64,000 bases of DNA from an uncultured Fibrobacteraceae bacterium (GCA_964420395.1 CAYQTJ010000004.1:2506-66505); one strand, 5' to 3'. Positions 8,042-55,686 are shown, numbered from the stretch's first letter. The notes: generated by a model from the letters alone, not told the origin. Made by a program: numbers and translations.

Positions 8042-8268
8042 GGTCCCTCCATGGCAGAGAGCAGCGACCGGCGTGGCCGCGCCCGTTCCGTATCGGCCGA
8101 ACGGCGGGCGGATTGAGCCGTCCGGGGACCGCCAGCCCCCGAACGGGCTCAGGCGGTGGTGGCCGGGGCCGATTCTAGTAGATTGTGCCCCTTTGCGGGA
8201 CGAGAATCCGCGCGGGCGCCGGCCTGGCGGTCGCGCGGCGCGGGGGGACAGTCAGCCGAGGAGGGATC

Positions 8269-9666: not shown

Positions 9667-9693
9667 CGGTCGCCGGAGGGGGGGCGGGCCGTC

Positions 9694-10125
9694 GTGCCGC
9701 TGATCGGATTGCTGGCGGTGGCGACCGGGCTGGCCACGCAGGTGGCCAAGGTGCTCGTGTCGTCGTGGCGGCGCGGACGGCCCGACTTCTCCCTCCTGCT
9801 GGCCTCCGGCGGGATGCCGAGTTCGCACACGGCGACCGTGACCGCCCTCGCCCTGTTCGTCGGCAGCGGGTCGGGCTGGGGCGGCCCCCTCTTCTCGGTG
9901 ACGCTGGTGTTCGCGGGCTACGTGGTCTTCGAGGCGACCGGGCTGCGGCAGGAGGTGGGCAAGCAGGCCCGCGTCCTGAACGATCTGGTGGACGCGCTGA
10001 TCGCCACCCACACGCTCGATCGCGGACGCCTGCGCGAACTGACCGGCCACACCTGGGGCGAAGTGGCCGGCGGCCTGCTCTGCGGGGTCGCGGGGTGGCT
10101 TCTGGGACGGCGTTTCCTGCCGTAG
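9694..10125 (+). CDS. divergent PAP2 / acid phosphatase-vanadium haloperoxidase-related membrane protein (YuiD-like)
   Basis: 143 aa. ASGGMPSSHTATVTALA is the characteristic motif of the DUF212/divergent PAP2 family. Confidence 0.55.
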   Translation: MPLIGLLAVATGLATQVAKVLVSSWRRGRPDFSLLLASGGMPSSHTATVTALALFVGSGSGWGGPLFSVTLVFAGYVVFEATGLRQEVGKQARVLNDLVDALIATHTLDRGRLRELTGHTWGEVAGGLLCGVAGWLLGRRFLP

Positions 10126-10294
10126 CGCCCGCGTCGCGCGCGGGCGAATCCGCTTGACACGCGCCTCCTCTCACCTAAGCTCCGCGGGAATGGCCGGTCC
10201 GGCGGACGGTCGGGGCCGTCCGTCCGCGGCCGACCGGGGGTGATCGGCCGGTCGTGCCGCGCCGCCACGGCGCGGGTGCGGAAAGGACGGGGTC

Positions 10295-11368
10295 ATGAGA
10301 ATCATCGCCCTGGCCAACCAGAAGGGCGGCTGCGGCAAGACGACGGTCGCCACCAATCTCGCCGCCGCGCTCGCCGAGTCCGGGCAGCGGGTGCTGCTGT
10401 TCGACAACGATCCGCAGGGGCACGCCACCCTCGCCAGCGGCCTGGGCGAGGGGGATTTCGCCGCCGGCGCGTACGATCTCTACCTCACCCTGGACGCGCG
10501 CGTCGAGGAGGTCCGGCGGACGGTCGCGCCGAACCTCGACCTGGTTCCGGCGGGGATCGAACTGAGCGCCGTCGAGCAGGCGCTCGCCGGCGAACCGGGT
10601 CGCGAGTGGCGCCTGCGCCGGGCGCTGGACCGTTCCTCCCTGCCCTACGATGTCGTGCTGATCGACTGCCCGCCCAGCGTCGGCCTGCTCACCTTCAACG
10701 CCCTGCTGGCCAGCGGCGAGGTGATCGTTCCGGTGGACGCGAGCGTGCAGAGCGCGCAGGCCGTGCGCAAGTTCCGCGAAACCCTGACGGTCATCGACGA
10801 GCGACGGGGCCACCAGGCCCGGCCGCGCCTGCTGCTGTCGAACCACGATCCCCGTTCGCGGTTCGCGCGCGACTTCGCGGCGGATCTCGCCCGGGACTTC
10901 GGCGACCTGCTGCTCGACACCGTGGTCCACCACACCGTGCGTCTGAAGGAGGCCGTCGCGGCCGGCCTGGCCGTGGGACGGCTCGACGCCGGCTCGCGGG
11001 GGGCGCGCGACTTCCGGAGCCTGGCGGCGGAACTGCTCGCGGCCGGCGCGGGCCTGGCCGATCCGGCGGCGTTCCCGTTGCCACCGGCGGCGGGCGGGCC
11101 GCTCCTGACCCCCGCGGGGGTGCGCTTCGCGGCGCGCTTCCCGGAGGCCCGCGCCGTGCGGGTTACCGGGTCGTTCACCGACTGGGCGGCGGAGGGGGAG
11201 CCGCTCACGGCGAAGGGTGACGGAGAGTGGGAGGCCGTGCTGCCGGTGCCGCCGGGGCGCTACGAGTACCGCTTCATCGTGGACGGCGACTGGCTGCCCG
11301 ACCCGCAGAACGCCGAGGCCGTGCCGAACGACTTCGGCGGCGTGAATTCCCTGCTGGTCGTGCCGTGA
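10295..11368 (+). CDS. ParA/Soj-type partition ATPase fused to a C-terminal CBM48 (AMPK-beta/glycogen-binding) domain
   Basis: N-terminal deviant Walker A (IALANQKGGCGKTTVATNLAAALA) and the ParA core (LLFDNDPQGHAT, VLIDCPPSVG). C-terminal ~90 aa (VRVTGSFTDWAAEGEPL..GEWEAVLPVPPGRYEYRFIVDGDWLPDP) match the CBM48/AMPK1_CBM beta-sandwich. Confidence 0.8.
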   Translation: MRIIALANQKGGCGKTTVATNLAAALAESGQRVLLFDNDPQGHATLASGLGEGDFAAGAYDLYLTLDARVEEVRRTVAPNLDLVPAGIELSAVEQALAGEPGREWRLRRALDRSSLPYDVVLIDCPPSVGLLTFNALLASGEVIVPVDASVQSAQAVRKFRETLTVIDERRGHQARPRLLLSNHDPRSRFARDFAADLARDFGDLLLDTVVHHTVRLKEAVAAGLAVGRLDAGSRGARDFRSLAAELLAAGAGLADPAAFPLPPAAGGPLLTPAGVRFAARFPEARAVRVTGSFTDWAAEGEPLTAKGDGEWEAVLPVPPGRYEYRFIVDGDWLPDPQNAEAVPNDFGGVNSLLVVP

Positions 11369-11381
11369 GATCGGGACGAAC

Positions 11382-12242
11382 GTGGCCGTCGAACTGACCC
11401 CCCGCAACCACGACATCCGCACCGTCGTCGACCACTTCCTCGAACCTGCGGTCGCCCCGGCGGGGCGCGCCCGGGGGGGGACGCGGGCCTATCGCTTCGC
11501 CGTGGCCGCCGGGGCCCACGGCTTCCTGGCCGCCTGGACCGCCGCGGGGCTCGCGCGGGCAAGCCTGCTGCTCGGCGGCAGCGGTGCCCGGCAGGCCCCG
11601 ATGCGGGTCACCCTCGAGGAGTGGCACCGGCAGGCGTGGGCCGCGGCGCCGTTCCTGGGGGGGGGCGACCGGGAGCGGCTGCGCACGCTGTTCCGCCCGG
11701 AGGCGTTCGGCCACGCGGAGGGGGACGCGCGGCGCTGGCTGGGCGGCGTGGAGGTGGTGCCGCCGCGCTTCGTCGGCCGATCCGGCGGCGGGGAGCCGGG
11801 ACCGGTCTGCGCCTGGATCAATCTGGGCGGGGTGGCGGGACGGTCGCTCGCGGCCCTCGAGGCGGCCCATGCCTGGGACGGGGGAGGTCTCTTCGACGGC
11901 GGCCTGGACGGGCTCGTGTGGTGCGTGCGCGCGGAGGAGGCGGGGGCGCTCGGCACCGCCTACGGCCTGGGCCGGCTGGCGGCGGCGCTGCGCCCGCGCC
12001 AACTGAAGCTGCTGGTCTACGCGGATGGGGCGCGGACCGGTGCCGCGCGGGACCGCTGGCGGGAACTGGCCGGGCTGGCCGCCCCCGCCGCGGCGATCGA
12101 ACTGCTCGCGGAGGCCTGCGATCCCCGGAGCGCGGCGGCGGAGGGGAGCGCCAGCCCGTTCGCCTCCCTGGCCGCCAGCCTGGCGCTCGGCGCGGAGGGG
12201 GCCAGGCGGTCGGGCGCCGCGGCGCGGGAGGCCGGCGCGTGA
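11382..12242 (+). CDS. hypothetical protein (Ala/Gly-rich), co-operonic with the ParA-CBM48 gene
   Basis: GTG start 14 nt after the parA-like stop. No family recognised. Reality of the coding call is uncertain because of GC bias. Confidence 0.35.
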   Translation: MAVELTPRNHDIRTVVDHFLEPAVAPAGRARGGTRAYRFAVAAGAHGFLAAWTAAGLARASLLLGGSGARQAPMRVTLEEWHRQAWAAAPFLGGGDRERLRTLFRPEAFGHAEGDARRWLGGVEVVPPRFVGRSGGGEPGPVCAWINLGGVAGRSLAALEAAHAWDGGGLFDGGLDGLVWCVRAEEAGALGTAYGLGRLAAALRPRQLKLLVYADGARTGAARDRWRELAGLAAPAAAIELLAEACDPRSAAAEGSASPFASLAASLALGAEGARRSGAAAREAGA

Positions 12243-12556
12243 ACGGCGAGGCGGGAGCCGTGCAGGCGGGGCTGGTCCGCGCCGGACCGCTGCGGGAGGA
12301 CTTCCGCCGCTTCCTGGAACTGCTGGGCGAGCTCGACCCCGGTGTCACGCTGCACGAGGAACCGTTCCGGATCGTGGTCCGCCTCCACGGGCGCCCGCTC
12401 TGTGACTGCCACCCTCAATCCCACGCCGTGCACGTTCGGCTTGGCCGGGAGGCGGGGGGCGAGGTACGCTGTCGCACGCATGAGGACTTTGTCGACATCC
12501 TGGCGCGGTTGCTCGGCGAGCTGCGCGGCGCGGCCCGGCCGCTGCCGCCGGTCTGA
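12239..12556 (+). CDS. small hypothetical protein (~105 aa) with a CxC...H...H motif
   Basis: GTG start overlaps the upstream stop (GTGA). The sequence ...HGRPLCDCHPQSHAVHVRLGREAGGEVRCRTHEDF suggests a possible metal-binding site. Confidence 0.3.
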   Translation: MNGEAGAVQAGLVRAGPLREDFRRFLELLGELDPGVTLHEEPFRIVVRLHGRPLCDCHPQSHAVHVRLGREAGGEVRCRTHEDFVDILARLLGELRGAARPLPPV

Positions 12557-12586: not shown

Positions 12587-13975
12587 GTGACGCGGGCGGG
12601 CGCGGCGCAATTCCTGTACGGCGGTTGCCTGCTGACCCTCCCGCTGATCGGGTGCGATCCGGTGCGCCTGGCGAGCGGGGCCGATCTGGGCGCCGGCTTC
12701 CAGCCGGCCTATCTGTTCCTGGCCGGGGCGACCCTGCTCGCCTGCGCCGCGACCGGGCGGCGGCGGCTGTGGGCCGGCTGGGCCGCGGCCCGTCCGTGGA
12801 GCACGCTCGGCCTGTGGGCCGCCGGGGCGGTGGCCGTCTCGGCGCTCGGCCTCGTGATCCGGCCTCCGGCGGGGGGGCCGGAAGCCGCGGCGCGGCTGTG
12901 GCGCCTGGGCAAGCAGTTCGGGCAGCTCCTGATCATGTTCACGTTCGTGGCCTGGCCGCTGCTCTGGACCCGGGGCAGCGCCCGCTGGGAGTGGACCCGC
13001 CGGCTGTTCGGCCTCGCCCTGCTCGGGCAACTGCTCTACGGGCTGGTGCAGGGGGCCCTGTTCGGCCACGCCTGCGCGCCGTTCGCGGCCCTGGAGCGGG
13101 TCTTCACCGCCAATCCTGCCATCCTGTCCGGCTCCGAGGAGCTGTACCTCGGCCACGGCTTCACCGGAATCCCCCGCCTGCGCGGCACCTGCTGCGAGCC
13201 GCTCTATCTCGGCAATTACCTCCTGCTGGCGCTGCCGGTGGTGCTGTTGCCGGGCGCACGGCATCGTCACCAGGCACTGGCGCTCGGCGGAGGCCTCCTG
13301 CTGCTGCTGACCTGGTCGCGCGGCGCCTGGCTGGCGGCGGGCGGCGCAGCCGTCGTCTGGGCGTTGCTGGCGGCGCGCGCGGGGCCTCGCCGGCGACCGG
13401 AGGCCGGGACGGAGTCCCCGCGGCGGTGGCTCATCGTTGCGGCGCTGTCGGGCATGGCGGTCGCGTTGCTGCTCTGGCGCCCCGACCTGGTCACGCTGCC
13501 GGCCCGACGGCTGGCGCAGTCGGTCAACCGCGAGGACTGGTCCAACCTCACGCGCCTCTACTCGATGCAGGCCGCCTGGCGCGCCTTCCTGCTGAGCCCG
13601 GTGGTGGGGGTGGGGTGGGGCCAGTTCGGCTTCCACTTCGTGGGGCTGGTCGATCCCCTCGGGCTGCAGAGCCAGTTCAGCTGGCCGGTCGTCAACTCCT
13701 ACCCGCTCCAGGTCCTCTGCGAAACGGGCCTCATCGGCTTCGCGGTCTTCGTCGGGGGGGCCGCGCTGGTGGCCCGGGCGATCGCGCGGGCGCTGGGCGG
13801 GGGAGGGGGAGTGGCGGGCGTCGAGGCCCGCCGCCGCACCGCCCTGCTCGCGGCGGCGCTCGTCGGGGTCTGGGGGCAGCTTCTGACGTTTTCCCAGTAC
13901 AACCTGCCCCACATATGGGTCGCCCTGGGGCTGCTGCTGGCGGCGACGCGGGAAGCGGAGGCGGGCCGTGGCTGA
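12587..13975 (+). CDS. O-antigen ligase/polymerase-like polytopic membrane protein (WaaL/Wzy_C family)
   Basis: About 10-12 hydrophobic helices. LTWSRGAWLAAGGAAVVWALL is the O-antigen-ligase (Wzy_C) signature. Confidence 0.65.
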   Translation: MTRAGAAQFLYGGCLLTLPLIGCDPVRLASGADLGAGFQPAYLFLAGATLLACAATGRRRLWAGWAAARPWSTLGLWAAGAVAVSALGLVIRPPAGGPEAAARLWRLGKQFGQLLIMFTFVAWPLLWTRGSARWEWTRRLFGLALLGQLLYGLVQGALFGHACAPFAALERVFTANPAILSGSEELYLGHGFTGIPRLRGTCCEPLYLGNYLLLALPVVLLPGARHRHQALALGGGLLLLLTWSRGAWLAAGGAAVVWALLAARAGPRRRPEAGTESPRRWLIVAALSGMAVALLLWRPDLVTLPARRLAQSVNREDWSNLTRLYSMQAAWRAFLLSPVVGVGWGQFGFHFVGLVDPLGLQSQFSWPVVNSYPLQVLCETGLIGFAVFVGGAALVARAIARALGGGGGVAGVEARRRTALLAAALVGVWGQLLTFSQYNLPHIWVALGLLLAATREAEAGRG

Positions 13976-15152
13976 GCGCCCCCTCGTGCTGCTGGACGCC
14001 CTGCTGGTGCAGCCGGAGCCGACCGGCGTCGGGCGGTCGATCCTGGAACTGACCCGGGCGCTGGCGGCCCGGGACCGGGGCTTCGATTTCGGGCTGCTGA
14101 CCACGCATCCGGAAGCGTTCGCGCCGCTGGAGGGGGTGCCGGGCTGGCGGGTGCTCACCTGTGCCGGCGCTCGCGGCGGCACCCTGCGCAAGGCGCTGTA
14201 CACCCAGTTCGCCCTGCCGGCGCTGGCGACGCGCCTGCGGGCGGCGGTCCTGCACAGCCTGCAGTTCGTGGCGCCACTGAGGCTGCCGTGCCGGAGCGTG
14301 GTCACCGTGCACGACCTGGCCTTCCGCCGTTTCCCGGGCACGGTGGAGGTGCCGCGGCGCTGGTACTACGAGGCCCTGGTGCCGGCGACCCTGCGGCGCG
14401 CCGGCCGGGTCGTCACGAATTCGCAGGCGACCGCGGACGACGTGGCGGCGCTGTTCCCCTCCGTCAGGGGGCGCCTGCGGGTGACCCCCTTCGGCACCCC
14501 CTCCTGGGTCTGGGAGCAGCCGGAGCGGCGGCGGGAGGGGGAGGCCGGGGGTCCGTTCCTGTTCGTGGGGACGCTCGAGCCGCGGAAGAACCTGCCGCGT
14601 ATCCTGGAGGCTTTTCGCCGGTTCCGAAACCGGGCCGAGGCCGCCGGCGGGCCGCCGCCGCCCGTTCTGAGCCTGGTGGGCGGTCGCGGCTGGGGAGATT
14701 CCCCCCTGCGGGAGCCGATCCGGGCCCTCTCGGCGCGGGGGGCGCTGCGGCTCGAGGGGTACTGCCAGCCGGCTCGTTTGTGGGAACTGTACGGCGCGGC
14801 ACGGGCGTTGCTATTTCCCTCCCTTCACGAGGGTTTCGGCTTCCCGATCCTGGAGGCGATGGCGGCCGGCCTGCCGGTCCTGACCGCCGACCGGGGGGCG
14901 ATGCGGGAGGTGGCGGGGGACGCGGCGCTGCTCGTGGATCCCGACGACGTCGAAGCGATCGCCGACGGGCTCGCCCGGCTGGACCGGGACGCCGCGCTGC
15001 GGGCGCGATTGATCGCGCGCGGCAGGGAGCGGGCGCGGGAGTGGTCGTGGGAGCGCACGGCCGCGGCCACGGTGGCGGTTTACGCGGAGTTGGTGGCGGC
15101 GCCCGGTCCCCGCGACGAAATTGCCGTTGCCGCGCCTGAGGATAGCGTTTAG
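13968..15152 (+). CDS. glycosyltransferase family 4 (GT-B, retaining)
   Basis: FVGTLEPRKNLPRILEAF... and FPSLHEGFGFPILEAMAAGLPVLTADRGAMREVAGDAALLVDPDD match the EX7E GT4 motif. Start overlaps the upstream stop. Confidence 0.85.
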   Translation: MAERPLVLLDALLVQPEPTGVGRSILELTRALAARDRGFDFGLLTTHPEAFAPLEGVPGWRVLTCAGARGGTLRKALYTQFALPALATRLRAAVLHSLQFVAPLRLPCRSVVTVHDLAFRRFPGTVEVPRRWYYEALVPATLRRAGRVVTNSQATADDVAALFPSVRGRLRVTPFGTPSWVWEQPERRREGEAGGPFLFVGTLEPRKNLPRILEAFRRFRNRAEAAGGPPPPVLSLVGGRGWGDSPLREPIRALSARGALRLEGYCQPARLWELYGAARALLFPSLHEGFGFPILEAMAAGLPVLTADRGAMREVAGDAALLVDPDDVEAIADGLARLDRDAALRARLIARGRERAREWSWERTAAATVAVYAELVAAPGPRDEIAVAAPEDSV

Positions 15153-15203
15153 CCTGCCGTAGCGACCAGCCGGCGATCGAGCCGCCAGGACAAGGAGCGC
15201 CGC

Positions 15204-16505
15204 GTGGATAGGGAGATCGTCGCGCTGTTGTGCGGACTGCTGGCGTTCAGCATGTCGTGGCTGGTGCAGCCGCACTTCCGCAACCTCGGCTTCCTCACCA
15301 AGATCGTGGACCATCCCGGCTACCGTCGCTCCCATCTGGAGCCGGTTCCGCGCACCGGCGGCATGGCCATATTCATCTCCTTCTTCTTCACCCTCTACAT
15401 CCAGGAGCGCCTCAGCCTCACGGATGCCATGCCGTGGTCGTGGCTCGGCATCCTGATCGGGGCCGGCCTGGCGATCCTGGCGCTGGGAGTGGGCGACGAT
15501 CGCTTCGGGATCCACGCGGAGAAGAAGCTCTACGGGCAGCTGCTCGTGATCGTGGGGCTGATGCTGTTCGGGCAGCGGCTCGAGGTGGTGAACCTGCCGC
15601 CGTTCGGCGAGGTGAACCTCGGCGGCTGGGCCTGGCCGGTCACCATGCTCTGGTACCTCGGCTTCATCAATTCGATGAACCTGATCGACGGGCTCGACGG
15701 ACTGGCGAGCGGCATCAGCGTGCTGGTCCTGCTCTCGCTCGGCGCGATCTCCCTGGCGGTGGGCGAATTCGTGCCGCTGGTGTGCGCGGCCACGCTGTGC
15801 GGGGCGACCGTGGCCTTCTTCTACTGGAACATCAGCCGGCGCAAGATCTTCCTCGGCGACTCCGGCAGCATGTGGATGGGGCTCGTGCTCGGCACGCTGC
15901 TGCTCGACCTGGGGCGCCGGACGAGCGTGGCGCTGCCGGTCCTGCTGGCGCCGATGGTGGTGCCGATCTGGGACACAGGAACCACGATCATCCGCCGCTG
16001 GCGCAAGCGGGCGTCGATCTTCCAGGCCGACGATTATCACCTGCACCACCGCCTGGTGCGGGTCGGCTTCTCGCCCCGCGCCGCGGTGGCGTTCCTGCTG
16101 CTGATCACCGCCGGCACCGTCCTGTTCGCGATGTCCGATTTTCTGGGCGCGCCGTGGATCGGGATGCCGGCGCTCGGTTGCTGGCTGCTCTCCCTGCACC
16201 TCGAAGCGACGCAGCACCGGCGCAACCGCGCGCTCGGCTTCGACTCGTTCACCGAAATCCTCTACATCCTCGGCTTCGACGACCGGCTCGAACTGCGCCT
16301 CGGGGCGCGGGGACGCAGGGTGGCGGAGATCGTCGACCTCCAGGCCGAGCGGCAGCGCGTGGAACGCACGCTCGCGGCGGCCGTCGGCGGCAGCGCGCCG
16401 GAGCGACTGGCGTCGCCCGCGCCGCGCCGACGCTCGACCAAGGCCGGCGCGGTGGAGGAAGCGGGCGAGGATGTCGTTCTCCCCACTACCCGCGATCTTT
16501 CTTGA
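15204..16505 (+). CDS. polyprenyl-phosphate N-acetylhexosamine-1-phosphate transferase (WecA/MraY family)
   Basis: Polytopic membrane protein. HPGYRRSHLEPVPRTGGMAIF and INSMNLIDGLDGLASGISVL are the MraY/WecA signatures. Confidence 0.85.
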   Translation: MDREIVALLCGLLAFSMSWLVQPHFRNLGFLTKIVDHPGYRRSHLEPVPRTGGMAIFISFFFTLYIQERLSLTDAMPWSWLGILIGAGLAILALGVGDDRFGIHAEKKLYGQLLVIVGLMLFGQRLEVVNLPPFGEVNLGGWAWPVTMLWYLGFINSMNLIDGLDGLASGISVLVLLSLGAISLAVGEFVPLVCAATLCGATVAFFYWNISRRKIFLGDSGSMWMGLVLGTLLLDLGRRTSVALPVLLAPMVVPIWDTGTTIIRRWRKRASIFQADDYHLHHRLVRVGFSPRAAVAFLLLITAGTVLFAMSDFLGAPWIGMPALGCWLLSLHLEATQHRRNRALGFDSFTEILYILGFDDRLELRLGARGRRVAEIVDLQAERQRVERTLAAAVGGSAPERLASPAPRRRSTKAGAVEEAGEDVVLPTTRDLS

Positions 16506-17139
16506 CGACCTGGCGCGGAGCGCCGGCCGACCCGCCCTCGAGGTGGGGTGCGGCGACGGACGCTTCAGCGCCGTGCTCGCGGCCCACGGGGCGCGCCCGT
16601 GGCGGCTCGACCGTCTGCCGCCGCGCCGGGGCACGGTGGCCGACGCCGTGGCCGACGCGCGCGCGCTGCCGCTGGCGGACGGGAGCCTGGGGCTGCTGGT
16701 CGCCGCCAACCTGCTGCGGCACCTCTGGTCGCCCCGCGGCCCGGAGGCGGTGCCCGAGGATTGGCTCCGCTGCATCGCCCCCGACGGCCGGCTCTGGATC
16801 TTCGAGGACGAGCCGGTGTCGCGGCCGCCGGCCGCGCGGCACTACCGGGACGCGATGACCCTGCTGGCGAGGCTCGACCCGGGAGGGCGCCGGCCGCTGC
16901 TGCCGCTCGGCCGGTTCCTGGCGCGGCTGGACGCGGCGGGACGAAGGGACGGCTGGAGGCACGGCATGGCGGTCAACGCCACGCCCGCGGCGGCGCCCGG
17001 AGCGCTGGCGGAGCTGCTCGCCGGGCAGGGGGGTGGGCCCGAGGCGCCCGGCGTCCGGCTGGCGGCCGCCATCCGGCGCGAAGGCCTCAGCTACGGGCCG
17101 TACTGGTGGGCGCGCTGGAGCCGGGAGGAGTCGGCGTGA
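16471..17139 (+). CDS. class I SAM-dependent methyltransferase
   Basis: ALEVGCGDGRFSAVLAAHG (motif I) ... DGSLGLLVAANLLRHL (motif II/III). Confidence 0.65.
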   Translation: MSFSPLPAIFLDDLARSAGRPALEVGCGDGRFSAVLAAHGARPWRLDRLPPRRGTVADAVADARALPLADGSLGLLVAANLLRHLWSPRGPEAVPEDWLRCIAPDGRLWIFEDEPVSRPPAARHYRDAMTLLARLDPGGRRPLLPLGRFLARLDAAGRRDGWRHGMAVNATPAAAPGALAELLAGQGGGPEAPGVRLAAAIRREGLSYGPYWWARWSREESA

Positions 17140-18470
17140 ACGGCTGGCGACGTCGGGGGGCGGGACTGGCGGCCGGGGGGGCGGCGCTGCTGCTGGGCGT
17201 GGCCGGCCTGCTGCTGGACGGCCCCCGGGGCCTGGTGGACTGGCGCGCCGCGCGCGTGGTGGTCCTCGAGAGCGACGACTGGGGCCTGAGCGGCTTCTTC
17301 CCGGAGAGCGCGCCGGCCGCCCCGGCGCGGGCCCTGCTCGGCGGGGGCTTCCCGGCCCCCTATTGGGACTCGACGCTCGAGGACAGCCTCGATGTGGCGT
17401 CCCTGGCCGCGCTCCTGGCGAGGCACGTCGGGCGGGACGGCCTGCCGCCGGTCCTGCAGGCGAACATGATCGTCTCCGCCCTGGAGCCTGAGCGGGCGGA
17501 GGGGGACGCCGCCGCGCCGCTCGCCTGGCGGCGGATCGACCTGCCCGACCTGCCGCGCGGCTACCCGCGCCCCGGCCTGGCCGCGGCGGTGGACGCGGCG
17601 ATCGCCGCGGGGGTCTGGCGGCCCGAGTTCCACGGCGCCTTCCACTACGATCCCGCCCGCCGCCGCGCGGCGCTGGAGTCGCGTCCCGATCTGCGCCCGT
17701 TGCTCGAGGAGACGGTGCTGTTTCCCGGCAGCGACACGGCGTGGGAATTGGGGGCCTGGCGGGCCACCGGGGAGTTGCGGGCGGAACTGGCCGCGGCCGT
17801 GGCGGTCTTCACGGCCCGCTTCGGCCACCGCCCGGTGTCGATCTGCGCGCCCGACTACGTCTGGGATCCCCGTTGCGAGGGGCTGTGGGCGGAGCAGGGG
17901 CTGACGGTGATCCAGGCCAAGCGCGAGCAGCGCGACTCCCGCCGGCCGGGGGGCGGGCCGGCGGCGCGGTTGCGCAAGGTGCTCGGGCGTGCCTGGGATC
18001 GCTGGCGCCACCCGGAGCGGCTCTACCTCGACCGCAATTGCCGGTTCGAGCCGGCGCAGGCGGCCGACAGCGCGGCCGCCGTGGCGGGCTGTGTCGCCGC
18101 GGTCCGGCGGGCCTGGGCTCGCGGCGAGCCGGCCGTCATCGAGACCCACCGCGTGAACTTCGTCAGCCTCGCCCCCGGGGCCGCCGCGCGGGGGCGGCGC
18201 CAACTCGACCTCCTGCTGGCTGCCCTGGCGGCCGAGCCGGGGGGAGGGCCCCTCTATCTGACCGATGCCGAACTGGCCCAATTGGCGCGGGGAGGCACCT
18301 GCCTGGCGTGGCGCGGCGACCGCGTCGTGCTCCGCAACCTGACCCGCGGGACCCGCGTGGCGACGATTCCCGGCCCGGCGGGCGGGGCGGACTCGCTGCT
18401 GGCGATCGCCCCCGGGACCACGCTCGTCCGGCGGGCCGCGGGGGGCCATTTGCGGGCGCCCCGACGGTGA
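17136..18470 (+). CDS. hypothetical protein with N-terminal membrane anchor (possibly a polysaccharide deacetylase-like fold; unassigned)
   Basis: GTG start overlaps the methyltransferase stop. One N-terminal helix (LAAGGAALLLGVAGLLL). No confident family. Confidence 0.4.
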   Translation: MNGWRRRGAGLAAGGAALLLGVAGLLLDGPRGLVDWRAARVVVLESDDWGLSGFFPESAPAAPARALLGGGFPAPYWDSTLEDSLDVASLAALLARHVGRDGLPPVLQANMIVSALEPERAEGDAAAPLAWRRIDLPDLPRGYPRPGLAAAVDAAIAAGVWRPEFHGAFHYDPARRRAALESRPDLRPLLEETVLFPGSDTAWELGAWRATGELRAELAAAVAVFTARFGHRPVSICAPDYVWDPRCEGLWAEQGLTVIQAKREQRDSRRPGGGPAARLRKVLGRAWDRWRHPERLYLDRNCRFEPAQAADSAAAVAGCVAAVRRAWARGEPAVIETHRVNFVSLAPGAAARGRRQLDLLLAALAAEPGGGPLYLTDAELAQLARGGTCLAWRGDRVVLRNLTRGTRVATIPGPAGGADSLLAIAPGTTLVRRAAGGHLRAPRR

Positions 18471-18474
18471 GGAA

Positions 18475-18503
18475 TTGACCCGCCGTCCCTGCTTGTGATA
18501 TCC
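18475..18503 (+). promoter_or_regulatory. putative sigma70-type promoter for giant gene 1 (-35 TTGACC, ~16-17-nt spacer ending in TG, AT-rich -10 GATATC/ATATCC)
   Basis: Lies in the only AT-rich patch of the 283-bp intergenic region. It shares TTGACC-cgCCc..CTT architecture with the promoter upstream of giant gene 2. Confidence 0.35.
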
Positions 18504-18753
18504 TAATAACCAGATCCGGATTCTGGGGAATCTCACCCGCTTTCCTCGGGACCCGGGCCTGCGCCAGTCAAGACAGCGGGCGCGCCGGGCGCGCCGATGA
18601 GACAGCAACCAGCGCTGGACCGGCGGGCTGGTGCCCCGGCCCATTCGCCATCCCGATCGCGCGGCATGCAGGATCCACGTCGTCTCCGGCCGGGCCGGAG
18701 GCAGCTCCCCTGCCGTAGCCCTATCGCCCACCCCCGTCGTTCGGAGGCCGCGG

Positions 18754-21700
18754 ATGAGATTGCGCCCCGCTCTCCTGGCCCTGTTCCTCTGGGTGATGCC
18801 GGCCCTCACCATCACGCTCTGTTCGAGCCCGCGGGAGGCGTGCGGCGCCGTCTCCGGTAGCGGCGCTCAGCTGCGCCAGGAGGTCACGTTCCCCCTTTCC
18901 CGCTCCGGATGGCCGGTGGCGGGGGAGGTCGGCGCCGCGCTGCTCACCGACGAACCGGGCGATCCGCGGGTGCCTTACCACGACGTCGTGCTGCTGCTCC
19001 CGCCGGGGCGGCGGGTCGCGGAGGCACGCTTCGCTCCTCGCGATCCGAGCGAGCGGGAACTGCCGGCGGCGGTGGTCACCGCGGCCCCGGCGCGGGTTTC
19101 CGCCGGGGGCGAGGTGGCCTGGGACCGGCTGCCGGCCGACGGGCCGGCGTATCCGCCGGCCTGGGGGGAACTGCTGGGCGAGACGGTCTGGCACGGCTAC
19201 CGCCTGGCCCACGTACGGCTCTACCCCTGGCAACTGACGCGGGGGGGCACGGGGACGTGGGACGGCGCACGCGCCGCAGCGGGGATGACGATCGAACTGG
19301 CGCTGGCTCCCGTGGCGGACGGCGGCGGTCGCCGGCGCCCGGCGCCGGAGCCGGACGCCGCGCTCAGGGCGCGGCTGCGGGGGCTGGTGGCGAATCCGGA
19401 CGCCGTCGCCGCCTACCCGCTGCCGGGCGTGGCGGCGGCGCGGGATGGCGCCGGCTTCTCGCCGACCTGGGCGCCGAGCCTGCTGGGCGACGATGTGGCC
19501 TACGTGATCATCACGAGCGCCGCGCTCGCGGCGGAGTTCCAGCGCCTGGCCGATTACAAGACCGCGCGGGGCGTCCCGACGGTCGTGCGCACGATCGAGG
19601 CGATCGTCGCCGCGGCGCCGGCCGGGATCGATCTGCCGGCGCAGATCCGCGCCTATTGCGCCGAGGCATACCGCGACTGGGGGACGACGGCTGTCCTGCT
19701 GGGCGGCGACACGCAGATCGTGCCGACGCGACGGATCCTCAACACGCTATATCCCGCGGGCGAGGGGACCGAGATGCCCGTGGACCTCTACTTCGCCTGC
19801 CTGGACGGGGACTGGAACGCCGACCACGACGAGAAGCTCGGCGAAGCCTACATGAATCCCTACGATTCGGGTGACTGGGCCGATCTGGCGGCCGAACTGG
19901 CGGTCGGGCGGGCGCCGGTCGCCACGGCGGCGGAGGCCGCCGTGTTCGTGGACAAGGTCATGGCCTACGAGGGGGGAACCGTCGCCGCGCCGGCTGGCCG
20001 CGCCCTCTTCCTGAGCGAAGTGCTCTTCCCGAGCGCCTGGACCGTCGGCACCCCCATCACCGACGACGGCGCGACGTACAGCGAGGCGATCATCAACGAA
20101 GTCATGGCGGAGTCGCCCATGCCCCCGGCGGCGACGCGGATGTACGAGGCGACCGCGCTCTGGCCCGGCTCGGTCCCCGAGCGGCGCCTCGCGGTGATCG
20201 ACTCGCTCAACACCGGGCACTTCGGGCTGGTCAACCACATCGGCCACGGTTTCTTCTACAACCTGTCCGTGGGCGATGCGACGCTCGATCTGAAGGATGC
20301 CGCCGGGGTCCACAACGACCCGAGCTACTTCATCCTGAACAGCCTCAACTGCTCCTCGTCCGCCTTCGACTACAACAGCATCCTCGAGCGGCTGGTGCTG
20401 AATCCGGGAGGCGGCGCCGTGGCCACGATCGGCTCGGCGCGCGCCGCCTTCCCGACCACCGCCAGCCAGTACCAGCGGGAGTTCTACGCCGCGCTGTTCC
20501 GCGACGGGATCCGGGAGGTGGGCGCAGCGGTGGCGGCCTGCCGCCTGCCTTTCCAGGGGCTGACCGCCGGGAACACGCCGGAGCGCTGGACGCACATGAC
20601 CCTGACGCTGCTCGGCGATCCGACGCTGGCGGTCTGGACCGCGCCGCCGGTGCCTCTCGTGGTCAGCGCGCCGGACACCCTGCCGCTCGGCGGGCAGGAG
20701 GTCGTCGTGAAGGTGACCCGCGGCGGGCTGGCCGTGGCGGGGGCCATGGTCTGCCTGCTCAAGACGGGCGAGTGCTACGCGCGCGGCTACACCGATGCGG
20801 GCGGGGAGGCCCGCCTGCCGGTCGTGGTGAAGTCGGCGGGGGCCGTCGCGCTGAGCGTGACGGCGGCCGACTCGCGCCCCGCGACGCGGACCCTGCCGGT
20901 GAGCGTCGCGCCGAGCCCGTACCTGAAGGTGACCTCGGTCCAGTTCCGGGATGACGGCACGCTCGGCTCGGTCGGCAACGGCGACGGCCTGCCGGATGCC
21001 GGCGAAACGGTGGCGTTGCTGCCGACCTTCACGAACAGCGGGACGGTCCTGGCCACCGGCGCGGTCTCGATGTCGGCATGGACCCTGACCCCGGGGGCGA
21101 CGCTGCTGTCGACCGCGACCGCCGTGCCGCCGCTGGCGCCCGGCGCGTCCGCGGTCGGCGGGAGCCCGCTGCTGCTGCGTCTCGAGGCCGGCGTGCCGGA
21201 CGGCACCCTGTTCACGGTGCAACTGGCCGCCATCGACGGCGGGCGGGTCTACTTGGACGAGATCTCCGAGCGGGGACGCGCGCCCGACCTGCGGCCGACG
21301 ATCATGACGTGGAGCGACTCGCCCGGGGGGGACGGCGACGGCGTGATCGAGCCCGACGAGGAGATCGTGCTGCGCGTGACGCTCCTGAATCCAGGCGGCG
21401 GGCGGGCCTCCGGCCTGACGGCCACCGTCGAGCCGGGAATCGGACTGACGGTGGTGGATGGCAGCGGCGCCTGGCCCGACATCGCGCCGGGGGGCGAGGC
21501 GACTCCGTCCGACGCGGTGAGCGTGCGCCCCGCCTCGCCGGTGTCGGCCGCCCGCGGCACGCTGGTCGTGCAGGACGCCTTCGGACACGAGTGGCGCCAG
21601 CGCTTCGACCTCACGCCGCCCGAACGGCCGACGGGAGTGACCGGCACCTCGCCCGCCGGCGGGGAGTGCCTCCTGCTCTGGACGCCGAACCCGGAGGCGG

Positions 21701-23562
21701 ACCTCTACGGGTATCACGTCTACCGGTCGCTGCAGCCGAATTACGGCTACGTGCGGCTCACCGCGGAACCGGTCACGGGCGGGAGCTTCTACCGCGACAC
21801 CGGACTCGCCGCGCTCACCCGGTACTACTATCAGATCGCCGCCGCCGACTCGTCGCGGCTGCTGAGCCGCGTCACCTCGACGCTCGGCGTCAGCACGGTG
21901 CCGTCGGAGCAGACCGGCTTCCCGATCGAGCTGCCCGCGGAGACGTCGAGCCATCCGGTCGTCGGAGACGTCAACGGCGACGGCCGGCTCGACGTGGTGC
22001 TGCCGGCCAATTACATCTACGTGTGGGACGCGGATGGGGTGGAACTGCGGAACGGCGACGGCGACAGCCAGACGCTCGGCCCCTTCAACTCCACGGCCGC
22101 CGACTGGGCGCCGGCCGGTGCCACGCTGGCCAACCTGACCAGCCGTCCGGGGCTGGAGATCATCGCCTCGAATCGCACCGCGCGGCAGATCTTCGTCTAC
22201 CAGGGGGACGGCACGGTGGCCGCGGGCTGGCCGCGCACGATGAGCGACTGGAACTGGGCGACGCCGGTGGCGGGGGATCTCGACGGGGACGGCGACCTGG
22301 AGGTCATCGCGAACACCGTCACGGGGACGCTCTACGTCTGGCACCACGACGGCACGGACTTCTTCGACGGCGACGCCAACCCCGCCACGGTCGGGGTGTT
22401 CCAGGTGCGCGTCAACGAGTGGTACAGCTTCTGCTCGCCGGCGCTCGCCGACCTCGACCAGGACGGGAAGCTGGAGATCATCCTCGGCACCCGCTACAGC
22501 GGCACGACGCCGGACGTGCTGATGGCGCTGCGCAACGACGGCACGAACCTGCCCGGCTTCCCGGTCAGCTTCGGCCTCTACGGCGAGACGCTCTGCAGCC
22601 CGGCCGTGGGCGATCTCGACCTGGACGGGCGGCTGGAGATCGTGGTGGTCACCGAGAACGATCGCCTGCAGGTCATCCGGCACACCGGGCTGTCGATGGC
22701 GCCGTTCCCGATCCTCTTCGTCTCCAACAACAACCCCGACGGGCTGAGCACCCCGTCGCCGGCGCTCGCCGACCTCGACGGCGACGGCTATCCGGAGATC
22801 GTGGCGGTGTCGGTCACCGACGCGCTGACCGCCGCGGTGCACGCGGTCAGGCGGACCGGCGTCAACCTGTCCGGCTGGCCGCGGGCGGTGGGGGGGAATT
22901 CGGAATCGTCGCCGGTGGTGGCGGACATCAGCGGCGACGGGCATCCGGACGTCCTGTTCGGCATCGGCGGCGGGGCCGACAGCAGCCCCAACGCGCTCTA
23001 CGCGTGGCGCCACGACGGCGGCGTGGTGCCGGGATTCCCGCTGCAGCTCAGCGGGCCGATCCGCCCGACCCCCTGCCTGACGGACCTGAACCAGGACGGG
23101 GACATCGACCTCGTCTACGGCGGCTGGGACCTGCAGATGCACGTCTGGGACCTGCCGGCGGCCTGGAATCCCGACCTGGCGTTCTGGCCCACCTTCAAGG
23201 GCAATCCGCTGCGCAGCGGCCTGGCCGGCCAGCTGTGGATCACCGCCGTGCCCGGGGGGGAGGACGGCGCCCCGCCGGCGGCGGTCGCGCTCGAGGGGAA
23301 TCGGCCCAACCCGTTCAATCCGCGCACGCGGATCACCTTCGCCCTGCCCGGCCCCGGCGCGGTCCGGGCCCGGCTGACCATCTACGACCTGCGGGGGCGG
23401 CGCGTGGCGCAGCTGGTGGACGGCTCCCTGCGGCCCGGGCGCCACACCGTCGACTGGTACGGGCGCGACGACGGGGGCGGGGCGGTCGCCAGCGGGGTCT
23501 ATCTCTGCCGGCTGACGGCCGGCGGGGTGGTGACGGAGCGCAAGATGACCCTGGTGCGGTGA
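18754..23562 (+). CDS. giant secreted multidomain protein: gingipain-like cysteine peptidase (C25) + FN3-like module + ~8 FG-GAP repeats + T9SS-type C-terminal sorting domain
   Basis: Signal peptide (MRLRPALLALFLWVMPALTITLC). C25 region (YVIITSAALAAEFQRLADYKTARGVPTVV..; LLGGDTQIVPTRRI; catalytic-type HIGHG and SLNCSSSAFD). FN3-like segment (GYHVYRS...YYYQIAAADSS). Repeated D-x-[DN]-x-D-G-x-x-[DE] FG-GAP units (DVNGDGRLDVV, GDLDGDGDLEVI, ADLDQDGKLEII, GDLDLDGRLEIV, ADLDGDGYPEIV, ADISGDGHPDVL, TDLNQDGDIDLV). C-terminal NRPNPFNPRTRITFALP...VYLCRLTAGGVVTERKMTLVR tail. Confidence 0.85.
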   Translation: MRLRPALLALFLWVMPALTITLCSSPREACGAVSGSGAQLRQEVTFPLSRSGWPVAGEVGAALLTDEPGDPRVPYHDVVLLLPPGRRVAEARFAPRDPSERELPAAVVTAAPARVSAGGEVAWDRLPADGPAYPPAWGELLGETVWHGYRLAHVRLYPWQLTRGGTGTWDGARAAAGMTIELALAPVADGGGRRRPAPEPDAALRARLRGLVANPDAVAAYPLPGVAAARDGAGFSPTWAPSLLGDDVAYVIITSAALAAEFQRLADYKTARGVPTVVRTIEAIVAAAPAGIDLPAQIRAYCAEAYRDWGTTAVLLGGDTQIVPTRRILNTLYPAGEGTEMPVDLYFACLDGDWNADHDEKLGEAYMNPYDSGDWADLAAELAVGRAPVATAAEAAVFVDKVMAYEGGTVAAPAGRALFLSEVLFPSAWTVGTPITDDGATYSEAIINEVMAESPMPPAATRMYEATALWPGSVPERRLAVIDSLNTGHFGLVNHIGHGFFYNLSVGDATLDLKDAAGVHNDPSYFILNSLNCSSSAFDYNSILERLVLNPGGGAVATIGSARAAFPTTASQYQREFYAALFRDGIREVGAAVAACRLPFQGLTAGNTPERWTHMTLTLLGDPTLAVWTAPPVPLVVSAPDTLPLGGQEVVVKVTRGGLAVAGAMVCLLKTGECYARGYTDAGGEARLPVVVKSAGAVALSVTAADSRPATRTLPVSVAPSPYLKVTSVQFRDDGTLGSVGNGDGLPDAGETVALLPTFTNSGTVLATGAVSMSAWTLTPGATLLSTATAVPPLAPGASAVGGSPLLLRLEAGVPDGTLFTVQLAAIDGGRVYLDEISERGRAPDLRPTIMTWSDSPGGDGDGVIEPDEEIVLRVTLLNPGGGRASGLTATVEPGIGLTVVDGSGAWPDIAPGGEATPSDAVSVRPASPVSAARGTLVVQDAFGHEWRQRFDLTPPERPTGVTGTSPAGGECLLLWTPNPEADLYGYHVYRSLQPNYGYVRLTAEPVTGGSFYRDTGLAALTRYYYQIAAADSSRLLSRVTSTLGVSTVPSEQTGFPIELPAETSSHPVVGDVNGDGRLDVVLPANYIYVWDADGVELRNGDGDSQTLGPFNSTAADWAPAGATLANLTSRPGLEIIASNRTARQIFVYQGDGTVAAGWPRTMSDWNWATPVAGDLDGDGDLEVIANTVTGTLYVWHHDGTDFFDGDANPATVGVFQVRVNEWYSFCSPALADLDQDGKLEIILGTRYSGTTPDVLMALRNDGTNLPGFPVSFGLYGETLCSPAVGDLDLDGRLEIVVVTENDRLQVIRHTGLSMAPFPILFVSNNNPDGLSTPSPALADLDGDGYPEIVAVSVTDALTAAVHAVRRTGVNLSGWPRAVGGNSESSPVVADISGDGHPDVLFGIGGGADSSPNALYAWRHDGGVVPGFPLQLSGPIRPTPCLTDLNQDGDIDLVYGGWDLQMHVWDLPAAWNPDLAFWPTFKGNPLRSGLAGQLWITAVPGGEDGAPPAAVALEGNRPNPFNPRTRITFALPGPGAVRARLTIYDLRGRRVAQLVDGSLRPGRHTVDWYGRDDGGGAVASGVYLCRLTAGGVVTERKMTLVR

Positions 23563-23853: not shown

Positions 23854-26800
23854 ATGGATCGCCATCGCCTGATGAGCCGCATCAGCCTGACCGTCGCGAC
23901 GGCCGCGGCGCTGACCTGGGGGACCGTGGCCCTCGGCGCCGGGGCCCCCGCCGCCTTCTTCGAGGGGAGGATCACCGGCGAGCTCTCGTGGGAAACGAAC
24001 GCCTCCGGGGCGGTGACGCCCCGCCTCGCCGGCGGTCGGGCCTGGGCCGAGACGGATCGGCCCGCGCTGGCGGTGCTCGACCTGCGCCTGCTGGTGCCGC
24101 TGGAGGCGGCGCCGGGCGGCGTCGAGGTGGTGCCCCTGGCGACGCACCGCGTGCGGGTGCCGGGGCGGCTGGCCGTCGGTTCGCCGCTCATCAGCAGCGA
24201 CGGGGTCGCCGTGGTCGCGGCCCGGCTCCCTCTGGACGGGGCGGTCTTTCCGGCGCAGTGGGGCGAATTCGGCGGCACGCAGGTCTGGCGGGGCTTCCGT
24301 CTCGCGTCGGTGCGGGTCTACCCGCTGCGGGCCGTGCGTGACGCGGCGGGCGAGTGGAGCGAACTCGAGGTGCTCGACAGCTACGCCATCCGGTTCCTGC
24401 CGGGCGGCGGCAAGCTCGCGGCGGGGGACGCCGCGGAGATCGCCGTGCGCGAACGTCGGGTGCCGGGCGAGCGGGCGCGCGCCGAGGCGGCGCTGGCCGG
24501 CCTGATCGCGAACCCCGGAGGGCTGTCCGGCTACGCGCGCGCCGACGGTGCGGTCGTGGCGGAGCCGGCGGGGGGCTTCGCGCCGAGCCAGACCCCCAGC
24601 CTGGAGGGGAGCCCGGTCCGTTACCTGATCATCACCCGGGAGGCGCTGGCCCCGGCCTTCCAGCGCCTGGCCGATCATCGCACCGCCCTGGGGGACCCTG
24701 CGGTCGTGCAGACGGTGGAGTGGATCGAGGCCAACTACCGCCACGGCGCGGATGTCCAGGAGACGATCCGGCTCTTCATCCGCGAGGCCTATCAGCGCTG
24801 GGGTGTGGAGTACGTCCTGCTCGGCGGCGACACCGACGTGGTCCCGGCCCGCTACATCCACAGCGAGTACTATCCCCCCTCGTCCAGCACCGACGTGCCG
24901 ACCGACCTCTATTTCGGGTGCCTGGACGGGAACTGGAACGCCGATGCCGACGATCTCTTCGGCGAGCACTACGCCAGCTATCTGAATCCCGGCGACAACG
25001 CCGATCTCGCCGACGAGGTGCGGGTGGGGCGCGCCCCGGTCAGCACCGTGAACGCGGTGAACGCGTTCATCGACAAGGTCATCGGCTACGAGCAGCAGGT
25101 GGCGGGGACGGGCTGGCCCAACCGGATGCTGTTCGCCGCGGAGGTGCTGTTCCCGGCCGACTACACCGCGGGGGCGACGATCACCCTCGACGGCGCGAGC
25201 TTCGCCGAGCAGTTGAACAACACCGCGCTCACCCCCTGCACCGGGATGACGCCGACGCGGCTTTACGAGTCGTATCCGCTCTGGCCCGGCTCGACGCGCC
25301 TCTCGCGCGCGGCGTTCACGGACTCCGTCAATACCGGTCACTTCGGCATCGTGAACCAGATCGGTCACGGCTTCTTCGTCAACATGTCGCTGGGCGACGC
25401 CAATTTCACCGTCGCCGACGCCGACGGATTGCACAACACGGGGCGCCCGTTCCTGCTCTATGCCCTCAACTGCGCCTCCGCGGCGTTCGACTACGCCTGT
25501 CTGATGGAGCGCTTCGTGCAGAATCCCAACGGCGGCGCGGTCGCGGCGATCGGCGCGGCCCGGGCCGCGTTCCCGTATACGGCGAACGACTATCAGATTG
25601 AGTTCTTCCGGCTGCTGTTCTGCAACGGCATCCACCGGCTGGGCGACCTGATGAGCCTCAGCCGCCTCCCGCAGCTGGCAGACACCTACTACAACACGGC
25701 CGACCGCTGGACCTTCCTGAACTACACGCTGCTCGGCGACCCCGGCCTGGCGGTGTGGACCGGTGCTCCGCGGCCGGCGAGCGTGGCGGCTCCCGCCTCC
25801 CTCACGGCCGGCGCCCAGTCGGTGACGGTGACCGTGACGGCCGACGGCCTGCCGGTCGAGGGGGCGCTCGTCTGCCTGAGCAAGGAGGGCGACGACTACG
25901 CCTCGGACTTCACGGATGCCGCGGGCCAGGTCTCCCTCGCCTACACCCCGGTCAGCGCCGGCGCGGCCAGCCTGGTCGTAAGCGGAGCGGGGCTGGCCCG
26001 CGAGGCGCGCGATCTGCCGGTGACGGTCCCCGGCGCGTACATCGCGCTCGACGCGGTGACGATCACCGATGACGGCTCCGCCGGCAGCAGCGGCAACGGG
26101 GACGGGCGCTTCGACGCCGGCGAGACGGTGGCGGTGGTCACCCAGTATCGCGACACCGGCACGGGGGGGGCGCTGAACTGCCTCGCCACTCTCAGCGGGG
26201 GGGCGGCCGGCCTGACCATCCTGGACGGCACGGCCAGCGTCGGCAACGTGCCGTCGGGCAGCGTCAAGGCGGCCACGGAGCCGTTCCTGGTGCGTGCCGA
26301 CGCCGCCCTGCCCGACGGTCTGCACGTGGCGTTCTCGGTCACGGTGACCGCGCAGGCCGGGGGGCCGTTCGCCAGCGAGTGGAATCCGGTCGTGCTGGCG
26401 CCGGAGCTGGCGCCGATCGCGCTGACCTGGTCGGACCTGGTCTACGGCAACGGGGACGGCGTGCAGCAGAACGGCGAGCGGATCACCGTGGCGGTGAAGC
26501 TCAAGAACTACGGCGACGGGCTGGCCGGGGCGATCACCGGGCGGCTGCGCAGCATGGACCCGGGCGTGGTCCTGCGCGACACCGTCGCGTCCTACGGCAC
26601 GCTGGCGCTGCTGCAGGAAGGGACCGGATCGGTGCCGTTCTCGCTGTCGGAGACGGACGTCAGCGTCGACCACCCCTGCTGGATCCTCTTCAGCGATCCG
26701 CAGGGGCGCACGGTGCGGCACGACTTCGTACTGAACGCGCCGGCGGCGCCGGCGGCGCCGGCGACCAGCGGCACGCTCGGGCCCGACGTCATCGGCCTGA

Positions 26801-40552: not shown

Positions 40553-40553
40553 G

Positions 40554-55665: not shown

Positions 55666-55686
55666 GCCGCTCCGCGAGGAGGCCGC

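Follow-up and report, generated by a model that had tools for sequence, protein, structure and literature searches.

A 64,000-nucleotide stretch of DNA (the window) from a metagenome-assembled genome (MAG) titled "uncultured Fibrobacteraceae bacterium" carries five consecutive plus-strand genes, which we call G1 to G5, whose predicted products would build a glycan on a lipid carrier and transfer it to an acceptor. Directly downstream lie two genes for giant proteins that combine a signal peptide, a gingipain-type C25 peptidase, and, at the C terminus, a domain that is conserved (CTD). We propose, tentatively and at somewhat less than even confidence, that G1 to G5 are the core of a glycan operon found throughout the Krumholzibacteriota and functionally tied to the CTD protease. 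The case for a functional link comes chiefly from conservation in one direction, from the cluster to the giant.

Because the window has a G+C content of 73.5%, genes were called from plots of third-position G+C (GC3) by reading frame together with a list of open reading frames (ORFs). Both showed positions 12587-18470 to be filled by five genes, as the first-pass annotation of this DNA had claimed, and the distance that it gave to the first giant was also borne out, since the G5 stop codon ends at 18470 and the giant's ATG stands at 18754, leaving a spacer of 283 bp (Table 1). It had further described a coupled operon with overlapping starts. Three of the four junctions do overlap (G1 and G2 share 8 bp, G3 and G4 share 35 bp, and G4 and G5 share 4 bp, with a gap of 51 bp between G2 and G3), and the same three overlaps were reproduced by an independent gene call in a relative at 62% identity. 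What did not hold was the upstream limit, as the coupled run probably starts ahead of G1, at 10295, with the first of three genes designated U3 to U5: U3 and U4 are 13 bp apart, U4 and U5 overlap by 4 bp, and 30 bp separate U5 from G1.

The synteny sample was drawn by running a G5 alignment against 185,579 species genomes and screening the 80 species loci that were kept by tblastn with the window proteins. The cluster was present in 70 of these 80 loci with a G5 relative; all five genes were detectable in 60 loci, and their order was identical in every one (60/60). When only loci with at least 2 kb of sequence 3' of G5 were counted, a C25 giant followed G5 directly in 64 of 64. These linked giants are ~1,600 to 1,740 amino acids (aa) long, and no more than a few hundred bases separate their starts from the G5 stop codon. 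The first-pass annotation had allowed that the cluster might prove to be conserved in relatives lacking the giants, and we found the opposite, at least within this phylum. Among loci with enough flanking sequence (45 upstream and 47 downstream), 35 of 45 had the ParA-like gene U3, with a DUF212 gene, upstream of the cluster and 8 had a GlnA gene directly adjoining it; on the other side, 28 of 47 had an SBP_bac_5 gene and ~19 had a second giant. The DUF212 and ParA-like genes are retained upstream even in the deepest clade and are missing in a sub-clade in which glnA abuts G1. Thus, the core block and the giant persist while both outer flanks rearrange, a persistence above that of the flanks.

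The named homologues of G5 and G1, like the majority of species-level genomes in which the locus occurs, are Candidatus Krumholzibacteriota MAGs, and the 120 matches listed for G1 were same-phylum orthologues only. Judged by these named homologues, the source organism would be a Krumholzibacteriota MAG and not a member of the Bacteroidota. The Krumholzibacteriota are grouped with the Fibrobacterota-Chlorobiota-Bacteroidota (FCB) lineages; NCBI taxonomy places them directly beneath Bacteria. Because the named homologues belong to this phylum, and given the G+C content, the Bacteroidetes framing under which the locus was first described is not directly applicable. A literature search found no report on type IX secretion systems (T9SS), lipopolysaccharide (LPS), or gingipains in Krumholzibacteriota. 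Krumholzibacteriota-type loci in full synteny also occur in many MAGs titled "uncultured Fibrobacteraceae bacterium" (e.g., L006, L007, L011, L018, L020, L031, L033, and L035) and in one titled "Gemmatimonadales"; such record titles are probably taxonomic mislabels.

The Pfam domain Wzy_C (PF04932) was matched by residues 232-389 of G1 with 50.8 bits against a cut-off of 31.7 (Pfam and NCBIfam domain scans were read at an E value of ≤0.01), and G1 is the sole Wzy_C gene among the window proteins scanned. A Foldseek search of the Protein Data Bank (PDB) with an AF2 model of G1 (pLDDT 85.7) gave only one match at E < 1e-3, to WaaL (7tpg; E of 1.2e-6, TM of 0.51/0.57), with FtsW next at an E of 0.04. 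A G1 sequence profile matched no solved chain in the PDB, even at E = 10, so it is the comparison of folds that connects G1 to WaaL. Residues R245, R308, R323, H350, and H442 are invariant among 32 G1 orthologues. In Escherichia coli WaaL, R215, R288, and H338 are functionally important, and Arg/Arg/His residues also matter in Neisseria PglL (PMC3643930). The order and spacing of R245, R308/R323, and H350 in G1 are similar to those of the WaaL Arg/Arg/His residues, as judged by position along the sequence. We therefore regard G1, whose modeled fold resembles WaaL, as a putative ligase that would move a lipid-linked glycan onto an acceptor.

The enzymes that would assemble the glycan are encoded by the next three genes. 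G3, the initiating transferase, has WecA as its top NCBIfam match and is nearer to WecA (TIGR02380, 116.9 bits) than to MraY (TIGR00445, 47.6 bits). Its score falls well short of the WecA equivalog cut-off of 326 bits, and we class it as a predicted member of the WecA family and not as an orthologue of E. coli WecA. It has at least six hydrophobic segments and a C-terminal extension of ~120 aa. The GT4-family glycosyltransferase G2 reaches no NCBIfam equivalog, and G4 is a predicted methyltransferase dependent on S-adenosylmethionine (SAM). The domain calls made for G1 to G4 in the first-pass annotation were all correct by their Pfam and NCBIfam scores, with Wzy_C, Glycos_transf_1, Glycos_transf_4, and Methyltransf_11/25 each matched. 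For G2, a Pfam GT4-conflict match had prompted an antiphage "conflict system" reading, which was rejected because PADLOC returned only two negligible matches.

G5 had been described as an unknown membrane-anchored protein. That it lacks a family match was correct, since no Pfam model (including Polysacc_deac_1) or NCBIfam model matched it at E ≤ 0.01, as was its anchoring, by a single N-terminal hydrophobic (transmembrane) helix, but a fold can now be assigned to it. In the AlphaFold model (pLDDT 90.7, pTM 0.90), G5 has the distorted beta/alpha-barrel of the deacetylases, scoring 16.8 against chitin deacetylase, 16.2 against Agd3, and 15.8 against ArnD, and the same CE4-type families headed a Foldseek search. 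Among 32 G5 homologues, S46-D47-D48-W49-G50, H166-x3-H170, D240-Y241, and H338-R339 are invariant, a set that contains CE4-like motifs in D47-D48 (the DD of MT1), H166-x3-H170 (the HxxxH of MT2), and H338 (the H of MT5), residues that would supply the Asp and His-His metal triad and the catalytic Asp/His pair expected of such enzymes. Compared with CE4/NodB deacetylases such as ArnD, PgaB, IcaB, PelA, Agd3, and PgdA, G5 has SDDWG instead of TFDDG at MT1, lacks the MT3 Arg, carries an extra C-terminal beta domain of ~60 residues, and falls outside Polysacc_deac_1 and every NCBIfam model. G5 is best read, from its model, as a membrane-anchored, periplasm-facing metallo-deacylase of the CE4/NodB fold, and its family is new to the current Pfam and NCBIfam libraries. 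In two distant genomes, one labeled Eisenbacteria (L074) and one labeled Limnocylindria (L076), a G5-family gene at ~7200-11270 stands divergently beside an ArnT-like PMT_2 GT-C transferase, a pairing that resembles ArnD/ArnT and so fits action on a lipid-linked sugar. In L074, the G5 homologue also lies downstream of a protein with three FlgD_ig domains.

The two giants of the window are tandem paralogues with 44% identity. Giant 2 is the conserved orthologue that lies directly 3' of G5 in most relatives; since the neighbor found in single-giant genomes is closer to giant 2, giant 1 is an inserted paralogue, and its insertion is limited to a sub-clade (e.g., L006, L035, and L053 to L062). The T9SS type A sorting domain model TIGR04183 (cut-off 23) gave 29.4 bits for giant 2 and 21.6 bits, just under the cut-off, for giant 1, while FlgD_ig exceeded its cut-off in both. 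In an alignment of 26 giant sequences, the giant 2 motifs G498-H499-G500 and N533-C534-x-S536, which hold the Cys/His dyad, are invariant, and a C-terminal NPFNP motif is nearly so. A PDB search with a single giant sequence returned FN3 and FlgD domains only. With a profile of the 26 orthologues, gingipain R was matched at 77 bits over its catalytic and Ig domains and PorU at 51 bits over ~40 residues; because gingipain R is the best match, the "gingipain-like" label that the giants had been given is accurate. We also considered the giants as PorU-like sortases, which was not supported: they score 92.7 and 99 bits against the PorU model NF033707, far under its cut-off of 420, and the PDB profile favors gingipain R.

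The spacer between G5 and giant 1 contains a predicted sigma-70-type promoter with an extended -10 element, the sole promoter-like site in 9.4 kb, where 0.1 would be expected, and extended -10 boxes of the type TGTGnTAnAAT recur in the G5-giant spacer of many relatives (within the set L001 to L073). A promoter of its own would make the giant a separate transcription unit that lies beside the operon and not within it. The spacer (18471-18753) is locally A+T-rich around the extended -10 element, after which comes an untranslated leader of ~250 nt. Rfam matched no family in 9000-30000, an interval that covers the cluster and the 283-bp spacer, and an RNA element in either was rejected on this ground.

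From the known biochemistry of each family, we infer that the products would act in the order G3, G2, G4, flippase, G5, G1. The WecA-type enzyme G3 would load N-acetylhexosamine 1-phosphate (HexNAc-1-P) on undecaprenyl phosphate at the cytoplasmic face, G2 would add a second sugar, G4 would methylate the intermediate, and an unlinked flippase would turn it to the periplasmic face. There the signal-anchored CE4-fold metallo-deacetylase G5 would remove an N-acyl group to expose an amine, and the WaaL-fold Wzy_C enzyme G1 would pass the finished glycan en bloc to an acceptor. Lipid A-core is the most likely one, given that the same window holds an LPS inner-core heptosyltransferase cluster 21 kb downstream of G1 to G5, and from the presence of that cluster the organism would be expected to make LPS. 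Since the gene content is invariant over ~70 species, the product would be a glycan of the "common antigen" type, not a serotype-variable O-antigen. Most likely, the genes are adjacent because the glycan acts as an anchor or as an acceptor in displaying the C25/CTD giant and similar proteins at the surface. The conserved arrangement suggests, although it does not prove, that sugar and protease work together.

Several observations weigh against such a tie. The giant would be transcribed from its own predicted promoter, apart from the operon. The link is also loose in reverse: when an alignment of the giant was run against metagenomes and the resulting loci were screened by tblastn like the G5 set, G5 stood upstream of 11 of 14 giants at ≥45% identity, of 5 of 9 at 38 to 44%, and of 1 of 24 at <38%. 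These counts indicate that giants with a C25 peptidase, propeller, and CTD form a wide family mostly without the cluster, which is tied to one giant lineage. Even close homologues of the giant lack it (L091, L098, and L110), and these three stand in unrelated settings, one with a radical SAM enzyme and a TonB receptor, one with ankyrin and CTD proteins, and one with a sigma-54 activator. Conversely, ten distant genomes (eight labeled Eisenbacteria, one Limnocylindria, and one unclassified) have a G5 homologue with neither G1 to G4 nor a C25 gene nearby, the Eisenbacteria-labeled homologues occupying other contexts. Genes for a flippase, a chain-length regulator, and nucleotide-sugar enzymes are missing from the cluster, which leaves the visible pathway incomplete. 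The scan of window proteins showed no component of the T9SS machinery (Sov/SprA, PorK/L/M/N, PorV, PorU, or PorZ), and neither the cluster nor those proteins contained an aminotransferase, dehydrogenase, or acyltransferase domain of the Wbp/Vim type; the frame of T9SS and anionic LPS (A-LPS) in which the locus had been placed had no support from these proteins. Many relatives also share ~20 kb of unrelated genes (GlnA, SBP_bac_5, and HIT) in synteny, and inherited gene order may thus account for part of the adjacency of cluster and giant. Finally, G1 may act as a polymerase or as a protein O-oligosaccharyltransferase and not as a lipid A-core ligase, because neither its fold nor its Pfam domain tells the three apart. 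The first-pass annotation had taken the physical linkage to suggest a dedicated anchoring glycan: the adjacency in 64 of 64 loci speaks for that view, and the giant's predicted promoter and the loose reverse link speak against it.

The best-surviving alternative, which we consider rather unlikely but of real weight, is that G1 to G5 make a housekeeping glycan (LPS outer core, O-unit, or a product like enterobacterial common antigen [ECA]) with no specific relation to the protease, the adjacency having been inherited in a slowly rearranging phylum. The enzyme families are those typical of WecA-primed LPS/ECA synthesis, and G1, the only Wzy_C protein among the window proteins scanned, would supply the ligase gene that the inner-core cluster at 39431-45361 lacks. 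The synteny of unrelated genes, the predicted separate transcription of the giant, and the lack of the cluster beside most giant homologues are all in its favor, and a gene content that does not vary is as much to be expected of a housekeeping "common" glycan as of a dedicated anchor. Against it, core and giant have stayed intact in 64 of 64 loci despite rearranged flanks, duplication of the giant, and loss of ParA/DUF212 in a sub-clade. With the enterobacterial WecA-primed O-antigen/ECA and WaaL systems, the locus shares WecA-type priming on undecaprenyl phosphate, cytoplasmic extension by a GT-B enzyme, and predicted periplasmic transfer by a Wzy_C/WaaL-fold protein. It differs from them in the distance of G3 from the WecA equivalog and in the want of any sequence match between G1 and a solved WaaL, and it differs from the variable enterobacterial O-antigen loci in a gene content that is invariant phylum-wide and that adds a methyltransferase and a periplasmic CE4-fold enzyme.

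We judged it unlikely that the pathway serves protein O-glycosylation, with G1 acting as a Wzy_C-type O-oligosaccharyltransferase (compare PglL, PilO/TfpO, and PglS) that would move a short glycan from undecaprenyl diphosphate to Ser/Thr residues of the giant. Such enzymes have Wzy_C in common with WaaL, and their genes usually adjoin that of the target, run in its direction, and lie apart from LPS loci, while the PglL_A motif (PF15864) distinguishes PglL from WaaL (PMC3643930). G1 likewise precedes a candidate secreted target, the giant, by 4.8 kb and reads in the same direction, with the LPS core genes 21 kb away, and the single extra glycosyltransferase of the cluster fits a short glycan. 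However, the Pfam scan of G1 gave no PglL_A match at E ≤ 0.01 (although PilO also lacks the motif), the sequence of G1 matches no solved chain, the target gene is predicted not to be cotranscribed, and the candidate target is a 1,600-aa protease, not a pilin.

The A-LPS/T9SS pathway of Porphyromonas gingivalis (WbaP, Wbp/Vim, Wzx/Wzy/WzzP, and WaaL, with PorU, PorZ, PorV, and PorQ) has A-LPS glycan genes that are scattered and not placed beside cargo genes. Common to it and the locus described here are a surface glycan completed by a WaaL-type ligase (putatively so for G1) and C25 proteins of the gingipain type that bear a type A CTD; here, the phylum is different, the initiating enzyme is of the WecA and not the WbaP type, and the cluster is without Wbp/Vim nucleotide-sugar enzymes, Wzx, or Wzz. 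In Bacteroidota, PorU joins T9SS cargo to the amine of an A-LPS sugar derived from the Wbp/Vim pathway, and it is this glycan amine that P. gingivalis uses for attachment (PMC10202324). G5 could create one in the present case. Because a deacetylase would also give a sugar amine, the earlier anchoring idea is mechanistically possible in a different chemical form. Carried to its limit, this would make the locus a non-Bacteroidota counterpart of A-LPS attachment gathered in one place, in which G3, G2, and G4 would build the glycan, G1 would put it on lipid A-core, the amine unmasked by G5 in the periplasm would be the nucleophile when CTD proteins undergo sortase-like transpeptidation, and the adjacent C25 enzyme would be not mere cargo but the transpeptidase and glycan presenter at once, as PorU and PorZ fused. 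The features cited for such a fused enzyme are the invariant Cys/His dyad, the PorZ-like beta-propeller, and the conserved CTD of the adjacent C25 protein, and we consider the joint claim quite improbable.

Least probable, with very little to recommend it, is a Wzy-dependent exopolysaccharide or capsule pathway in which G1 would be the polymerase, G5 a polymer deacetylase like PgaB, IcaB, or Agd3, and the ParA/BcsQ-like CBM48 ATPase U3 the organizer of the machinery: G5 does resemble the exopolysaccharide deacetylases Agd3, PelA, PgaB, and IcaB, U3 does match BcsQ and, weakly, BY-kinase models, and Wzy_C covers polymerases too, but neither the cluster nor the scanned window proteins include a Wzx, polysaccharide copolymerase (PCP)/Wzc, or outer membrane polysaccharide export (OPX)/Wza component, U3 is missing in a sub-clade that retains G1 to G5, and G1 has its one significant fold match to a ligase.

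If the proposed tie between the glycan operon and the CTD protease is functional, the locus would provide a first genomic handle on the anchoring of CTD surface proteins outside the Bacteroidota, with a glycan pathway and its target or processing enzyme in one compact, phylum-conserved locus. If it reflects inherited gene order only, G1 to G5 are a conserved LPS-glycan operon of the ordinary kind, from a phylum that is uncultured. New in either case are a fold and, from the model, a likely activity for G5, a protein family that Pfam and NCBIfam miss, and a phylum-wide linkage of cluster and giant that is open to testing.

Table 1. Features of the glycan locus, the giant protease genes, and the inner-core-type cluster
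Feature	Coordinates	Strand	Evidence
U3, predicted ParA/MinD/BcsQ-like P-loop ATPase with C-terminal CBM48/AMPK1_CBM carbohydrate-binding domain	10295..11368	+	Pfam AAA_31 148.8, CBP_BcsQ 58.7, AMPK1_CBM 48.2 bits
U4, soluble protein, 286 aa, function unassigned	11382..12242	+	GC3 frame plot
U5, soluble protein, 105 aa, function unassigned	12239..12556	+	Sequence reading
G1, polytopic Wzy_C protein with WaaL fold, putative glycan ligase	12587..13975	+	Wzy_C 50.8 bits
G2, GT4-family (GT-B) glycosyltransferase	13968..15152	+	Glycos_transf_1 101 bits, Glyco_transf_4 54.8 bits
G3, WecA-type polyprenyl-phosphate HexNAc-1-phosphate transferase, initiating	15204..16505	+	PF00953 Glycos_transf_4 116 bits
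G4, small cytoplasmic SAM-dependent methyltransferase	16471..17139	+	Methyltransf_11 33.1 bits, Methyltransf_25 27.7 bits
G5, membrane-anchored CE4/NodB-fold, deacetylase-like enzyme	17136..18470	+	AlphaFold fold match and conserved motifs
Predicted sigma-70-type promoter, extended -10 (TTGACC, 18-nt spacer, TG-n-TATCCT)	18475..18504	+	No other promoter-like site within 9.4 kb (expected number, 0.1)
Giant 1, signal peptide, gingipain-type C25 peptidase, Ig/FN3-like domains, FG-GAP propeller, CTD	18754..23562	+	Peptidase_C25 205.8, FG-GAP_3 118.6, FlgD_ig 31.8 bits
Giant 2, architecture as giant 1	23872..28725	+	Peptidase_C25 203.3, Peptidase_C25_C 26.5, FlgD_ig 32.8 bits
LPS inner-core-type cluster	39431-45361		Four GT9 heptosyltransferase genes, HAD/GmhB-like phosphatase, DUF3108
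GT9 heptosyltransferase genes	39431-40552, 40554-41660, 42256-43482, 43479-44534		
HAD/GmhB-like phosphatase	41657-42259		
DUF3108	44531-45361		

Of the three genes that probably open the coupled run, U3 had NCBIfam matches that all fell below their cut-offs, the weak BY-kinase ones included. U4 had no match in Pfam, NCBIfam, or PADLOC and no predicted transmembrane segment, and U5 had none in Pfam or NCBIfam. The position of U4 is occupied by genes of 289 aa in L001 and 273 aa in L003, and that of U5 by a 111-aa gene in L001. The DUF212 gene (divergent PAP2 membrane phosphatase family) and U3 together span 9694-11368.

Beyond the inner-core genes, an ArnT-like PMT_2 GT-C gene (46409-48001) overlaps a Bac_transf initiating transferase gene of the WbaP/PglC type (47998-48684), and the pair is predicted to be a second, separate glycan-priming system in the window. 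A 546-aa protein encoded at 30517-32157, after the SBP_bac_5 gene, has no Pfam or NCBIfam match and is found at the same position in many relatives at 23 to 43% identity. A tight plus-strand run at 52700-56505 comprises genes for a hydantoinase-like ATPase (403 bits to PF13941, "MutL protein"), an uncharacterized protein of 371 aa, and a DUF6754 protein, and a type IVa pilus retraction ATPase of the PilT/PilU family is encoded at 61634-62776 (444 bits against a cut-off of 319).

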